Source: Fibrobacteraceae bacterium (lineage in GTDB: Bacteria > Fibrobacterota > Fibrobacteria > Fibrobacterales > Fibrobacteraceae). Taken from it: a stretch of 28,905 nt of DNA. Where the stretch lies: contig DATIQS010000227.1 in assembly GCA_035470605.1 (NCBI GenBank), positions 1 to 28,905 of the forward strand, in the 5' to 3' direction. The notes below the pieces were generated by a model. The model did no database searches. It worked only from the letters and a program-made list of their open reading frames with translations, and was not told where the DNA came from. Positions within the stretch are counted from its first letter, which is position 1; each line of letters begins with the position of its first letter. This document shows, piece by piece, positions 7,245-22,436 of the stretch. Both the position numbers and the translations under genes were made by a program.

Positions 7245-7835
7245 TTACTTTGCGCCCTTGCGCGGCTGAAAAATTTCATCCACGATTCCGAAATCCAAGG
7301 CCTCCTGAGGCCCCATATAAAAATCACGGTCCGTCTTTTCGCGCACCTCGGGGACGGTCTTGCCCGTGTGTTTCGCAACGATTTCCGCCAACTGGTCACG
7401 AGAGCGAACAATTTCCTTGGCGTGAATTTGAATGTCCGAGGATTGGCCAGTAGCCGCGCCCATGGGTTGATGAAGCATCACTTTGGAGTGAGGCAACGCG
7501 TAGCGTTTTCCCTTTGTGCCCGCGGCCAAAAGGACCGCCGCCATGGAAATCGCAGAACCGATACAGATAGTGACCACATCGGGACGAATATGCTGCATGG
7601 TGTCGTAAATCGCCATCCCCGCTGAAACGTACCCCCCTGGGCTGTTGATGTAAACGATGATGTCTTTTTCGGGGTTTTCATATTCCAAAAAAATCATCTG
7701 GGCCATGACATTGTTGGCGACCTGATCATTGATCGGTTCCCCGAGAAAAATAATACGCTCTTTCAACAGACGGGAATAAATATCGTAGACGCGTTCACCG
7801 CGTCCAGTGTTTTCAATAATGGTAGGGATCAGCAT
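7245..7835 (-). CDS. clpP: ATP-dependent Clp protease proteolytic subunit ClpP
   Basis: [23 protein letters not shown], catalytic Ser region [13 protein letters not shown] and DRDFYM. AGAGG RBS. Confidence 0.98.
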
Positions 7836-7902
7836 GCAAACCTCTCTTCTCAGATTTCTGCTTAAAAGTAGAAAACTAGTGGCACTGAATTTTTCCCAGA
7901 AG

Positions 7903-7931
7903 ATTATCCTAGATCCCGCAGTTGATCACAA
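7903..7931 (-). promoter_or_regulatory. Putative sigma70-type promoter for clpP-clpX-lon
   Basis: The minus strand reads TTGTGA-N17-GATAAT, about 70 nt upstream of the clpP ATG. It lies inside the repeated element, so it may be coincidental. Confidence 0.4.
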
Positions 7932-7975
7932 AGAGGATATGTGTCAGTAGCAGCTAAAGCTGAACGGGCATATCA
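7908..7975 (+). repeat. Dispersed repeat core, copy B (inverted relative to 20228-20294)
   Basis: Hand alignment gives 53/68 identical columns with one 1-nt gap, including the exact 16-mer AGCAGCTAAAGCTGAA (7949-7964 versus the complement of 20239-20254). Confidence 0.9.
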
Positions 7976-8080
7976 GAACGGAGATATCATCCAACTGACC
8001 GGCGACAAACAGGGTCAGTTGGAAGAGGAATTTTTATGCCTCACCAAGCCACAGGATGTGGAACATAAAAATCGACCGGG

Positions 8081-8899
8081 TCAGCTACTGCCGTTAGGTT
8101 TAAAAAAAGAAACGCCATGGCCCAAAAGTTCGCTGTGAATATCCCCTAAGGCCGGAAAGGTTTTGCGCCATCGTTTCAAATTTTCCAAGTCCAAATCCGC
8201 CTCCAGAACACGCTCCTCTGGACCTGCTAGCGCGATCCTTTCCCCCTGAGGTCCGAAGACAGCACTTTCTCCCTTATACTCCAAAAATTTGTCTCGCCCA
8301 GCACGATTGACCCCCAAAACAAAACACTGGTTTTCAATAGCACGAGCCTGCAACAAGGGAAGCCAGTGCGCCTGCTTGGGGCTAGGCCAATTCGCTGGCA
8401 CTGTAAAAATCTGGGCTCCGGCGCGTACAGCATGGCGAAACGCCTCGGGAAAGCGCAAGTCATAGCAAATGAAGGGAGCCACCTGAGCATCTCCGGCAGG
8501 ATAGAGCAGGATGTCTCGCCCAGCCTCAAAACGTTTGTGCTCTCCGCCGTAGGTAAAGGGGTGTAATTTCTGGAATTTTCCCAGGACGTTTCCCTCTGGG
8601 CCATAGGCCACAACCAAATTTTGCCGACGCCCATCAGGAGCCGGGGTAATGCCAGAGCCCTGGATCACACATTGCAGTTCCCGAGCCAATGCGGACAGGA
8701 AATCACCCGTTTCCGCGAGTTGCCCTGGCGAACCCTCCACAAGTCCACCGAACTCCACATCAAAACCGGTCGCAAACATTTCGGGCAAAACGACAAGAGA
8801 GCCAGGCAGCACCCGACCAGCCAATAATTTCCGCACACAAACGAAATTGGCATGTTTATCACGCCATTGGATGTCGAGCTGCACCAGATAGGCCTTCAT
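8081..8899 (-). CDS. Carbon-nitrogen hydrolase (nitrilase superfamily; omega-amidase/Nit-like)
   Basis: Glu-Lys-Cys triad in VLPEMF, FQKLHPF and ICYDLRFPE, plus RAIENQ. GAGG RBS. Confidence 0.92.
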   Translation of the reverse strand: MKAYLVQLDIQWRDKHANFVCVRKLLAGRVLPGSLVVLPEMFATGFDVEFGGLVEGSPGQLAETGDFLSALARELQCVIQGSGITPAPDGRRQNLVVAYGPEGNVLGKFQKLHPFTYGGEHKRFEAGRDILLYPAGDAQVAPFICYDLRFPEAFRHAVRAGAQIFTVPANWPSPKQAHWLPLLQARAIENQCFVLGVNRAGRDKFLEYKGESAVFGPQGERIALAGPEERVLEADLDLENLKRWRKTFPALGDIHSELLGHGVSFFKPNGSS

Positions 8900-20140: not shown

Positions 20141-20148
20141 TCCCAAGC

Positions 20149-20329
20149 GAACGGCATAGGCTGACTAACGGCATCACGGGGGCATAAACCCAACGATAGC
20201 TAGCACCTTAAAGGAGGGAGTACAGGATGATCAGCCAATTCAGCTTTAGCTGCTCCTGGCATTTATACTCTGTATGTACAACTCGGGTTCTAGGTTTAAG
20301 CTAGCATCACCATAATATGGAAAGCGTCC
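20149..20329 (-). ncRNA. Candidate 6S-like RNA (~181 nt), copy A
   Basis: Rod-like fold that works only on the minus strand because of G-U pairs: GGACG/CGUUC, AUGGUGAUGC/GUGAUGCCGU, GAACCC/GGGUUU, a central bubble containing CAUAC, then GAGUA/UACUC, CAGGA/UCCUG and CAGCUAA/UUGGCUG. A terminator lies downstream. Confidence 0.55.
20228..20294 (-). repeat. Dispersed repeat core, copy A (homologous to 7908-7975)
   Basis: 53/68 identical columns with copy B. Extra shared blocks are TTTATGCC (20188-81 versus 8033-40) and GTCAGC-N3-TGCCGTT (20165-50 versus 8080-95). Confidence 0.9.
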
Positions 20330-20345
20330 TCAAAACGCCATAGAA

Positions 20346-20373
20346 TTGACCGCCGTTTTTCCTTTTCTATATT
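20346..20373 (+). promoter_or_regulatory. sigma70-type promoter for tRNA-Val-thrS-infC-rpmI-rplT
   Basis: TTGACC-N16-TATATT, followed by a GC-rich discriminator (CGCCGCC) 13 nt before the tRNA. Confidence 0.65.
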
Positions 20374-20386
20374 TCGCCGCCAGCCC

Positions 20387-20460
20387 GGACGATTAGCTCA
20401 GTTGGTTAGAGCACTACCTTGACATGGTAGGGGTCACAAGTTCAAATCTTGTATCGTCCA
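20387..20460 (+). tRNA. tRNA-Val (anticodon GAC), CCA not encoded
   Basis: Acceptor GGACGAT/ATCGTCC, D arm GCTC/GAGC, anticodon arm CTACC-TTGACAT-GGTAG, T arm ACAAG-TTCAAAT-CTTGT, discriminator A followed by TCA. Confidence 0.98.
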
Positions 20461-20510: not shown

Positions 20511-22436
20511 ATGCAAGAAATTGAGTTGATCCTTCCAGATAAATCTGTACGCAAAATCCCTGCCGGAACGACGGGCCAGCAGGTGGCGGAGTCGATTTCC
20601 CAAAGCCTGGCACGCAAAGCTCTAGCGATAAAAATCGGCGGCAAAATTTTGGACCTAAGCCAGCCCCTAACTACTGGCGGAGATTTCCGTATCATCACCC
20701 CATCCAATGATGACCCAGACGCCCTTTACGTACTACGCCATTCCTGTGCTCATGTGCTTGCCGAAGCCGTTTGCGATCTGTACCCAGGCACCCGCCTTGC
20801 ATACGGCCCTCCGGTAGATGAAGGTTTCTATTACGATCTTGCCTCTCCAAAGCCCTTAAGCGATGACGATTTTCCAGCCATTGAAAAACGCATGGCAGAA
20901 ATCATCAAGGAAGATCGCCCGTTTACCCGTTGCGAAGTTCCCGTAGAAGAGGCAATGCGACGCACAGAGGGCGACAAATACAAGCGTGACAACGCCGAAC
21001 GAGCCGTCGCACGCGGCGATAAAATCATTAGTTTCTACGCAAACGGTGAACCCGGTAAAAATTGGGAAGACCTTTGCGCTGGGCCCCATGTTCCGAGTAC
21101 CGGGCGCCTCAAAGCCTTCAAAATTCTTTCCTTGGCCGGCGCTTACTGGCATGGAGATCAGAACTCCGACCAACTAACCCGCATCTACGGAGTCTGCTTC
21201 GCGGATAAAGAGGGTCTACAGAAACACCTGACCTTCCTAGAAGAGGCAAAAAAGCGCGACCATCGCCGATTAGGAAAGGATCTCGATCTTTTCCATCTCG
21301 AGGACCACAGCCCCGGTATGGTGTTCTGGCATCCCAAAGGCGCCTTTCTATACAATGCGTTACGCAACCATGTTCGCAAGGTGATTTTAGCCCGTGGATA
21401 TCAAGAGGTCATTACCCCAGAAATTGTGGATAAATCGTTGTGGATTCGTTCGGGACACGCCGACAAGTACAACGAAAACATGTTCAAAACCATGGCGGGC
21501 GATAAGGAGATGGCAGTCAAACCAATGAACTGCCCCTGCCACATCGAAATTTTCAATCAAGGTCTCAAGAGCTGGCGTGACCTGCCCCTACGCCTCGCCG
21601 AATTTGGGAAATGTCACCGCAACGAACTCGCCGGCACCATGCATGGCCTAATGCGCGTGCGCGGTTTTGTGCAGGACGACGCCCACATATTCTGCACCGA
21701 AGAACAAATCGCTCCAGAAGTACGCGACTTTTGCGTCCTAGTCAAAGACCTCTACGCCGACTTTGGCTTCCAGGTCGCTAAAGTCAAATTTTCCACACGC
21801 CCAGAAAAACGCATCGGTTCCGACGACCTCTGGGACAAGGCTGAAGCGGCTCTTGCAGAGGCAACCAAGCTGGCAGGGTTGGATGCCGAGCTAAATCCTG
21901 GCGAAGGCGCCTTTTACGGCCCCAAACTTGAATTCGTACTCAAGGACTGCCTAGGCCGCGACTGGCAATGCGGAACCATCCAGGTGGACTTCAACCTTCC
22001 TGTGCGCCTGGGTGCGACCTACGTGGGCCAGGACAACCAAAAGCACCATCCGGTCATGTTGCATCGAGCGGCTCTAGGCTCCATCGAGCGTTTCTGCGGC
22101 ATCCTGATCGAAGAATATGCCGGCGATTTTCCCCTATGGCTCGCCCCGACCCAGGTCCGCGTCCTCCCGATTTCCGAAAAATTCCAGGACTACGCCCTCC
22201 AAGTCCTTAGCAAGTTGATTGCCGCTGAAATCCGCGCCGAGGTGGACAACAGCAACGAAAAAATTGGATATAAGATCCGTCAAGGGGAACAACAGAAGAT
22301 TCCATACTTACTGGTGGTTGGAGAAAAGGAAACCCTGGGCAACCTCGTTTCTGTCCGAAAAAGAAAAGAAGGGGATCAAGGCCAGCAGTCCTTGGACGAT
22401 TTCGTAAAAGTTTTTAAATTAGGCCTCCCCAATTAA
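20511..22436 (+). CDS. thrS: Threonine--tRNA ligase, 641 aa
   Basis: TGS domain, editing domain (RHSCAH, DLCAGPH), KPMNCP, RVRGFVQDDAH, GEGAFYGPK, MLHRA and the anticodon-binding domain. GAGGTG RBS. The longer ORF call runs through the tRNA and is rejected. Confidence 0.98.
   Translation: MQEIELILPDKSVRKIPAGTTGQQVAESISQSLARKALAIKIGGKILDLSQPLTTGGDFRIITPSNDDPDALYVLRHSCAHVLAEAVCDLYPGTRLAYGPPVDEGFYYDLASPKPLSDDDFPAIEKRMAEIIKEDRPFTRCEVPVEEAMRRTEGDKYKRDNAERAVARGDKIISFYANGEPGKNWEDLCAGPHVPSTGRLKAFKILSLAGAYWHGDQNSDQLTRIYGVCFADKEGLQKHLTFLEEAKKRDHRRLGKDLDLFHLEDHSPGMVFWHPKGAFLYNALRNHVRKVILARGYQEVITPEIVDKSLWIRSGHADKYNENMFKTMAGDKEMAVKPMNCPCHIEIFNQGLKSWRDLPLRLAEFGKCHRNELAGTMHGLMRVRGFVQDDAHIFCTEEQIAPEVRDFCVLVKDLYADFGFQVAKVKFSTRPEKRIGSDDLWDKAEAALAEATKLAGLDAELNPGEGAFYGPKLEFVLKDCLGRDWQCGTIQVDFNLPVRLGATYVGQDNQKHHPVMLHRAALGSIERFCGILIEEYAGDFPLWLAPTQVRVLPISEKFQDYALQVLSKLIAAEIRAEVDNSNEKIGYKIRQGEQQKIPYLLVVGEKETLGNLVSVRKRKEGDQGQQSLDDFVKVFKLGLPN

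Follow-up and report, generated by a model that had tools for sequence, protein, structure and literature searches.

Two short non-coding elements stand upstream of housekeeping operons in the DNA described here, a whole 28.9-kb contig (28,905 nucleotides, DATIQS010000227.1; hereafter the window) of a Fibrobacterota metagenome-assembled genome (MAG) of 2.92 Mb, 527 contigs and 85.5% completeness. One of them (copy A) precedes clpP, clpX and lon, and the other (copy B) precedes tRNA-Val and thrS. With a probability of about 0.85, both loci are relic copies of a family of miniature inverted-repeat transposable elements (MITEs), that is, non-autonomous DNA transposons, which has multiplied in one uncultured soil Fibrobacterota species. 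An earlier, sequence-only reading had proposed two paralogous 6S-like RNAs of ~180-220 nt and had kept an undescribed multi-copy, MITE-like family as its fallback. It is the fallback that has held, as the copies have terminal repeats and target duplications, are dispersed between genes and are in part nested or mosaic. Elements of this kind are well known: the two loci represent an ordinary genomic parasite rather than a pair of genes for regulatory RNAs, and the false lead of a new 6S-like RNA pair at clpP and thrS is thereby removed. The family itself seems to be undescribed, having neither an Rfam entry nor a match to its terminal repeat in the searchable literature. Taken together, the findings are a modest addition to mobile-element biology and not a new kind of system.

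A dispersed core module and two kinds of ends

The similarity between the two loci is real and far beyond chance. Exactly as had been reported, the alignment of 7908-7975 (+) with the reverse-complemented 20228-20294 has one gap and 53 identities in 68 columns, and the shared 16-mer AGCAGCTAAAGCTGAA occurs exactly once per strand in the window, at 7949 and 20254. With both intergenic regions oriented as their operons, MAFFT aligns a block of ~75 nt at high identity, and a global alignment of copy A with copy B gives 111 identities. The shared block had been taken for a two-copy feature, but it is a repeat of the whole genome. A 70-nt core query from copy A yields 84 blastn matches in its own genome, and a profile built from these matches finds 90 copies of a hairpin core of ~55 nt by nhmmer. 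Eighty-four of the 90 cores lie outside open reading frames (ORFs) of at least 120 aa, though such ORFs cover ~90% of the genome. The diverged variants, 73 of them distinct in sequence, occupy different unique gene contexts; many copies are well inside contigs and many others are at or near contig ends. In the contigs of the source soil metagenome run, the summed depth over 7933-8014 is ~30 times that of the flanks. One public run, a soil DNA metagenome, holds the locus, and no RNA run was among those matching it in a run search that was not aimed at RNA.

The limits of the elements are given by their terminal repeats. The window copies belong to a family termed here type II, whose terminal inverted repeats are 19 nt long and read CCTA[A/G]nnnCCGCAGTTGAC, followed by CGGGnCGA; the opposite end reads ...GTGTACAACTGCGGnCGTTAGG (...CAGTTGTACAC-type). 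The end motif has 117 matches in the genome, and a stricter pattern has 40 matches against 0 for a reversed-pattern control. Pairs of ends in inverted orientation delimit 16 complete elements of 53-336 bp. Among those longer than 90 bp, 9 of 14 have 5-nt flanks alike at four or more of the five positions (for instance, ttcaa/ttcaa, ttgaa/ttgaa and attat/attat), whereas flanks taken at offset control positions are mostly alike at 0-1. The interiors are mosaics of hairpin modules in variable order and orientation, and nested as well as chimeric type I/type II copies are present.

Seen against this family, several details of the first description change their meaning. The GTCAGC-N3-TGCCGTT block noticed in both copies is real and turns out to be the terminal repeat of the L end (8080-8098 in copy A, 20147-20165 in copy B). 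The TTTATGCC block, thought to follow in the same order in both, does belong to an internal module, but in copy B it is inverted relative to the core when compared with other copies. Copy A runs from 8098 (CCTAACGGCAGTAGCTGAC) to 7908 (...CAACTGCGGGATCTAGG), so that the limits of 7877-8095 give way to 7908-8098, with 20147-20294 for copy B. The proposed outer stem GUGGC/GCCAC falls partly outside the element (7880-7884, beyond the end at 7908) and is taken as incidental.

A second MITE family of the same genome, type I, accounts for 138 ends in 2.9 Mb. Its 4-bp A/T-rich duplications are perfect in 7 of 16 complete copies, and its ends are close to those of a resident IS5-family insertion sequence (IS), which is its parent; a second, frameshifted IS of this family has matching ends too. 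Type I copies have the same hairpin core as the window copies; unlike them, the window copies lack the GGGCACCTCTAAAAATT ends and are of type II. Thus the core is common to two MITE families with unrelated ends, and one species shows module exchange between IS5-type and ISEcp1-type MITEs.

As in MITEs generally, the elements are short (under ~600 bp) and non-coding, they have terminal inverted repeats, a duplication of fixed length at the level of the family, and many copies, mostly between genes. An autonomous partner with the same ends, a further hallmark, was found for type I (its parent) and not for type II. Compared with known bacterial MITEs, such as the Correia elements of Neisseria and the modular pneumococcal BOX elements, the likeness extends from small size, lack of coding capacity, high copy number, intergenic position, terminal repeats and duplications to folding on both strands, modular interiors and an occasional overlap with gene ends. 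They differ in their ends, duplication length (Correia elements duplicate TA) and hosts, and in that here one hairpin module is common to two families with unrelated ends. The repeats are numerous (~90 cores, 117 type II and 138 type I ends in 2.9 Mb), and the many copies at contig ends fit, without proving, assembly breaks at repeats in this 527-contig MAG.

Terminal repeats in other species and the question of a transposase

The terminal repeat reaches far beyond this species. At least 119 stretches of DNA from other species contain the 19-nt sequence CCTAGATYCCGCAGTTGAC, against ~9 expected by chance, and most of them come from Gamma- and Betaproteobacteria. Among the matches listed, its carriers include Thiodiazotropha, Sedimenticola, Burkholderiales and Rhodoferax, and one MAG each of Opitutaceae and Parasphingorhabdus also has ends of this type. 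An inverted partner is present for 65 of the ends in the loci fetched; 62 of these pairings give elements of 102-312 bp (~235 bp in most), and the three longer ones (772-1799 bp) use degenerate ends. Perfect 5-bp duplications with the consensus WTNAW flank 31 of 60 elements, controls being alike mostly at 0-2 positions, and all four bases are seen at the middle position. Such 5-bp duplications with a variable middle are the signature of cut-and-paste or replicative DDE transposition. A reading of the flanking 5-bp repeats as recombination sites was considered and is contradicted by the variable middle base. In the searchable literature, CCTAGATYCCGCAGTTGAC is met with in primer coincidences alone.

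The proteobacterial elements of ~235 bp share with the type II family the identical 19-nt repeat and the 5-bp WTNAW duplication. They differ in their fixed length and in an interior of their own, whereas the Fibrobacterota copies are variable and mosaic and contain a species-specific core. Their interior motif TCACC..GGGTGA..CGCTAC..GATTGCAC is kept across species (~60 loci, e.g. L075:3394-3629, where L numbers are our handles for fetched loci). Ten of the proteobacterial loci gave no Rfam match at the gathering score, and no transposase was found near these elements. One unannotated MITE of ~235 bp is found in plasmid p5 of Caballeronia grimmiae (NZ_CP084278.1; L186:3001-3236), a finished IncP plasmid, between an oxidoreductase and a phospholipase D gene. 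The sole same-genus genome (G001) has one 219-bp copy with these ends and without the core. Two genomes of the same class (G032, G040) contain short (~90-nt), partly tandem repeats (e.g. L035:1463-1551) with CCTAATTRCCGCAGTTGTC, a relative of the type II end, and no transposase stands beside the repeats. An apparent 1.95-kb element with long inverted ends was rejected as two separate MITE copies flanking an aminopeptidase gene. With these carriers, a MITE superfamily with ISEcp1-like ends and no known autonomous partner spans Fibrobacterota, Gamma- and Betaproteobacteria, and the Opitutaceae and Parasphingorhabdus MAGs.

The core shows a very different distribution. No BLAST match to it was found in 40 relatives, G001 included, and an exact 22-position pattern, which recovers 38 of the 90 copies in its own genome, had 0 matches in ~185,000 other species and in JGI metagenome contigs. 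Homology confined to this assembly is seen for the core, which is in no other genome searched, and not for the terminal repeats, which are in many other assemblies.

ISEcp1 is a member of the IS1380 family, in which the ends start with CC and the duplications measure 4-5 bp. Family variants begin with CCTAGATTCCGCAG, the first 9 of 9 nucleotides being those of the left inverted repeat (IRL) of ISEcp1, and the same is true of the proteobacterial end. The R end of copy A, CCTAGATCC, has its first 7 nt in common with that repeat. The element duplications are 5 bp, as in ISEcp1, and within the 4-5 bp of the IS1380 family. The IRL of ISEcp1 reads CCTAGATTCTACGT, and its direct repeats are 5 bp (PMC6061673). 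The elements are therefore like ISEcp1 and the IS1380 family (transposase PF13701, NF033539) in ends that begin with CCTAGATTC and in 5-bp A/T-rich target duplications. They are unlike them in that the ends diverge from ISEcp1 beyond nucleotide 9-10 and that no transposase gene lies inside. Judged by sequence comparison, the ends are ISEcp1-like; that type II was mobilised by an IS1380-family enzyme appears somewhat likelier to be true than false.

On this model, a DDE transposase supplied in trans would bind the terminal repeats of an element that has the ends and the duplication length of ISEcp1-type (IS1380-family) insertion sequences. The element would insert at A/T-rich WTNAW sites with duplication of 5 bp. 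Modules would be shuffled via nested insertion and recombination between copies. The core module has also been taken up into the second, unrelated MITE family (type I) of the same genome.

Several observations weigh against relic MITE copies of this descent. No autonomous element with type II ends was found. No IS1380-type transposase was detected in the MAG itself, where absence is unproven at 85.5% completeness and 527 contigs, and none in the relatives searched, 36 of the same family and 6 of the same order. In five MITE-carrying proteobacterial genomes, the IS1380 model gave one weak, sub-threshold partial match with no terminal inverted repeat nearby, and tblastn of 80 fetched loci found no transposase. 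The IS1380 models matched only three same-class genomes among 60 relatives, with different ends; the elements seen in a same-class genus have the ends CCTAGCCTGAATTCGTC, with only CCTAG in common with type II ends. The two ends of copy A follow different family variants (AACGG vs AGATC) and hence agree at just 11 of 19 positions. Clean target duplications are lacking at both window copies, and synteny with G001 is broken upstream of both operons, so that no orthologous empty site is available. Finally, the core hairpin is kept better than neutral decay alone predicts (88% paired, with a few compensatory pairs).

Other searches for a partner led no further. In the genome, pairs of inverted repeats separated by 0.6-5 kb yielded the type I parent, an IS5-family IS, and nothing else. 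The ORFs beside unpaired ends are all ordinary (M18 aminopeptidase, VWA, UbiA, epimerase, APS kinase and ATP-grasp). A broader proposal, to which we give little credit, is that the hairpin is a selected portable module (RNA or DNA, bound by a host or transposon factor) and that the superfamily is moved by an unrecognised, non-IS1380 transposase. Such an enzyme, if it exists, would account for the missing partner in every carrying genome.

The MITE reading and its rivals

The window copies themselves are old, because their terminal repeats are mismatched and their flanks are alike at only 3 of 5 (TTAAA/ATAAT, copy A) and 2 of 5 (CCCAA and TTTAA, copy B) positions, and they are probably immobile today. 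A doubtful, though the best supported, alternative to decayed MITEs is that selection maintains the core for a function, for instance as a site bound by protein, as a hairpin in RNA stability or processing or as a domain of a small RNA. Two MITE families would then have spread it, and it would affect neighbouring genes such as clpP-clpX-lon and tRNA-Val-thrS. Its presence in MITEs with unrelated ends speaks for such a role, as does the apical hairpin (CAGC-TTTA-GCTG inside GCC.GT/ACTGRC), which was correctly recognised at the outset and keeps 88% of pair cells over the 73 distinct copies. None of 1000 shuffles reached the observed pairing or the observed count of double changes, in a test that kinship between copies inflates. 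Compensatory changes occur at pair 28-37 (A-T in 32, G-C in 23 and C-G in 1 copies) and more rarely at 29-36, 30-35 and 24-42, but one split between the type I and type II subfamilies, at pair 28-37, accounts for most of the covariation. Moreover, the palindrome folds on either strand, and G-T wobbles (38 on one strand vs 25 on the other) are not strand-specific. These data fit a DNA palindrome in recently amplified elements, and some constraint on the hairpin may act. Core and upstream gene have the same strand in 42 of 63 copies (p 0.011, a weak bias on a crude ORF map), core and downstream gene in only 31 of 75, so that the common geometry noted at the two loci is not a trait of the family. 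A sigma-70-like site scoring 9/12 lies across the R end and flank of copy A and points at clpP, but the number of such sites (1 found vs 0.8 expected in shuffles) is that of shuffled sequence, and the resident promoter-like motifs stand outside both copies and are conserved at the MITE-free loci of G001. Since the core was not found in this sister species, the other relatives or the wider scans with the exact pattern, it cannot be needed for clpP or thrS expression. No evidence of either window copy acting on the clpP or tRNA-Val operon was seen.

That the loci are paralogues encoding a 6S-like or another trans-acting small RNA, as first suggested, is highly improbable. Copy A does fold below its shuffles on the operon strand (z -2.64), its predicted fold is rod-like, its length is similar to that of 6S RNA, and both copies are intergenic and oriented as the downstream operon. 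The opposite strand of copy A, however, folds just as well (z -2.70), and copy B is equal to shuffles (z 0.01), which leaves strand-symmetric or chance folding. A true 6S RNA would be a strand-specific rod with a central bubble, encoded once or twice per genome and conserved among relatives. The 6S model RF00013 matches neither locus, even at E up to 10, and nothing else in the genome. Rfam likewise returned nothing relevant for the window at the gathering score or for both loci at E up to 10, where the only matches were sub-threshold chance ones to eukaryotic small nucleolar and long non-coding RNA families and MicX. With 90 copies, bounded by transposon-type inverted repeats, and a core found neither in G001 nor in 39 further relatives, the 6S-like reading is refuted by copy number and distribution. 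Slightly less remote, yet very unlikely, is that a Y1 (HUH) transposase, RAYT-like or IS200/IS605-like, moves the repeats in single-stranded form, as in the hairpins of repetitive extragenic palindromic (REP), REPIN or PATE elements. The interior made of hairpin modules and the lack of a DDE partner would suit it, and the one IS200-type Y1 gene of the genome (PF01797, 124 bits) lies directly against a type II remnant. Terminal inverted repeats of 19 nt with true 5-bp duplications of variable middle base, however, are not made by HUH transposases (IS200/IS605, RAYTs). In addition, no conserved GTAG-type REP head is present, and the Y1 gene hardly looks like the mobiliser, since the remnant truncates it and intact ends do not flank it. 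REP/BIME sequences of Proteobacteria are indeed mosaics of short palindromic modules in intergenic DNA, but they have neither long terminal inverted repeats nor target duplications, and RAYT genes are associated with them. Least credible of all is an assembly or binning artefact of this MAG. The core is in no other genome or JGI contig and one public run holds the locus, as an artefact would have it, but 73 distinct, diverged cores in different unique gene contexts, the many copies well inside contigs, and the independent presence of the terminal repeats in numerous other assemblies and a finished plasmid record speak for genuine repeats.

Two further observations concern neighbouring kinds of elements. 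The Y1 gene, at C220:5444-5863 (C numbers being our handles for contigs), is cut off by the contig end, and its 3' end runs into the type II remnant as a nested mobile-element junction. By eye, the ACCTAAC...GTTAGGT variant of the ends resembles integron attC core sites (RYYYAAC ... GTTRRRY), which stand at the ends of cassettes in arrays beside intI, and the CCTAGAT variant does not; the attC reading was rejected on context, with no search for intI made, as the copies are solitary between housekeeping genes and have 5-bp duplications.

Feature positions and neighbouring genes

Positions are collected in the table below. Neither window copy has an ORF inside, and the statement that no protein-coding feature explains the element stands, with the caveat that the upstream carbon-nitrogen (CN) hydrolase gene ends within copy A.

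Table. Features of the window and related elements of the same genome
Feature	Position	Strand	Remarks
Window	1-28,905		whole 28.9-kb contig of Fibrobacterota MAG
MITE copy A, type II	7908-8098	minus	191 bp; between CN-hydrolase gene and clpP; limits from the two terminal repeats of the family
L-end terminal inverted repeat, copy A	8080-8098	minus	CCTAACGGCAGTAGCTGAC; family consensus CCTAACGGCCGCAGTTGAC
R-end terminal inverted repeat, copy A	7908-7926	plus, read inwards	CCTAGATCCCGCAGTTGAT; pattern match with 1 mismatch
Core module, copy A	7930-7988	minus	imperfect palindrome (hairpin) 7937-7973; from nhmmer profile alignment of 90 copies
5' flank, copy A	8099-8103	minus	TTAAA; candidate decayed target duplication
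3' flank, copy A	7903-7907	minus	ATAAT; candidate decayed target duplication; target consensus WTNAW
MITE copy B, type II, degenerate	20147-20294	plus	148 bp; between CsgG-domain gene and tRNA-Val
L end, copy B	20147-20165	plus	GCGAACGGCATAGGCTGAC
R end, copy B	20276-20294	plus	finishes ...CTCGGGTTCTAGG
Core module, copy B	20234-20272	plus	nhmmer match; hairpin 20234-20260
Promoter-like site for tRNA-Val/thrS	20346-20373	plus	TTGACC-16-TATATT; outside and downstream of copy B
clpP	7245-7835	minus	Pfam CLP_protease, E 3e-81; neighbour, start 72 nt downstream of copy A
clpX, lon		minus	same strand as clpP
Carbon-nitrogen hydrolase gene	8081-8899	minus	upstream of clpP; 3' end enters copy A by 18 nt
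tRNA-Val(GAC)	20387-20460	plus	neighbour, outside copy B
thrS	20511-22436	plus	with tRNA-Val, downstream of CsgG-domain gene
Type I MITE			~40 copies, many nearly identical, ~335 bp; perfect 17-nt ends GGGCACCTCTAAAAATT
Type I parent, IS5-family IS	C27:1-1242		ends GGGCGCCTCTAGAAAT; open 354-aa frame with DUF772 and DDE_Tnp_1
Second IS5-family IS, frameshifted	C361:5697-6833		DUF772 and DDE_Tnp_1

The hydrolase ORF (Pfam CN_hydrolase, E 1e-37, residues 5-246 of 272) reads through the flank into the L end of copy A and finishes ...KPNGSS-stop. Its last five codons (PNGSS) and the TGA are supplied by the L end, and its C-terminus extends nine residues past the end of the G001 orthologue. Copy A has thus replaced the final codons and the stop of the upstream gene, which explains the odd C-terminus of the protein.

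On the promoter side, G001 has a counterpart of the tRNA-Val site, CTTGACG ... TATATT, with no MITE there. The 72 nt between copy A and the start of clpP contain a TGGGAAAAA...TAGTTTTC stretch that resembles the clpP upstream region of G001. Both copies would therefore have landed immediately ahead of the promoters already resident at clpP and tRNA-Val, in what is taken as a tolerated insertion zone. Additionally, TAnnTTT(G/C) motifs occur upstream of tRNA-Val (20346-20373) and clpP (7850-7900), both in this genome and in G001. They resemble the Bacteroidota-type -7 element and are situated downstream of the MITE copies.

Different genes precede clpP and tRNA-Val in G001, and the spacers there are short and MITE-free. 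In other genera of the family, clpP follows its upstream gene (putative tig) with almost no spacer. This synteny of clpP is lost in the genus itself, that is, in the present genome and in G001, where different genes stand upstream.

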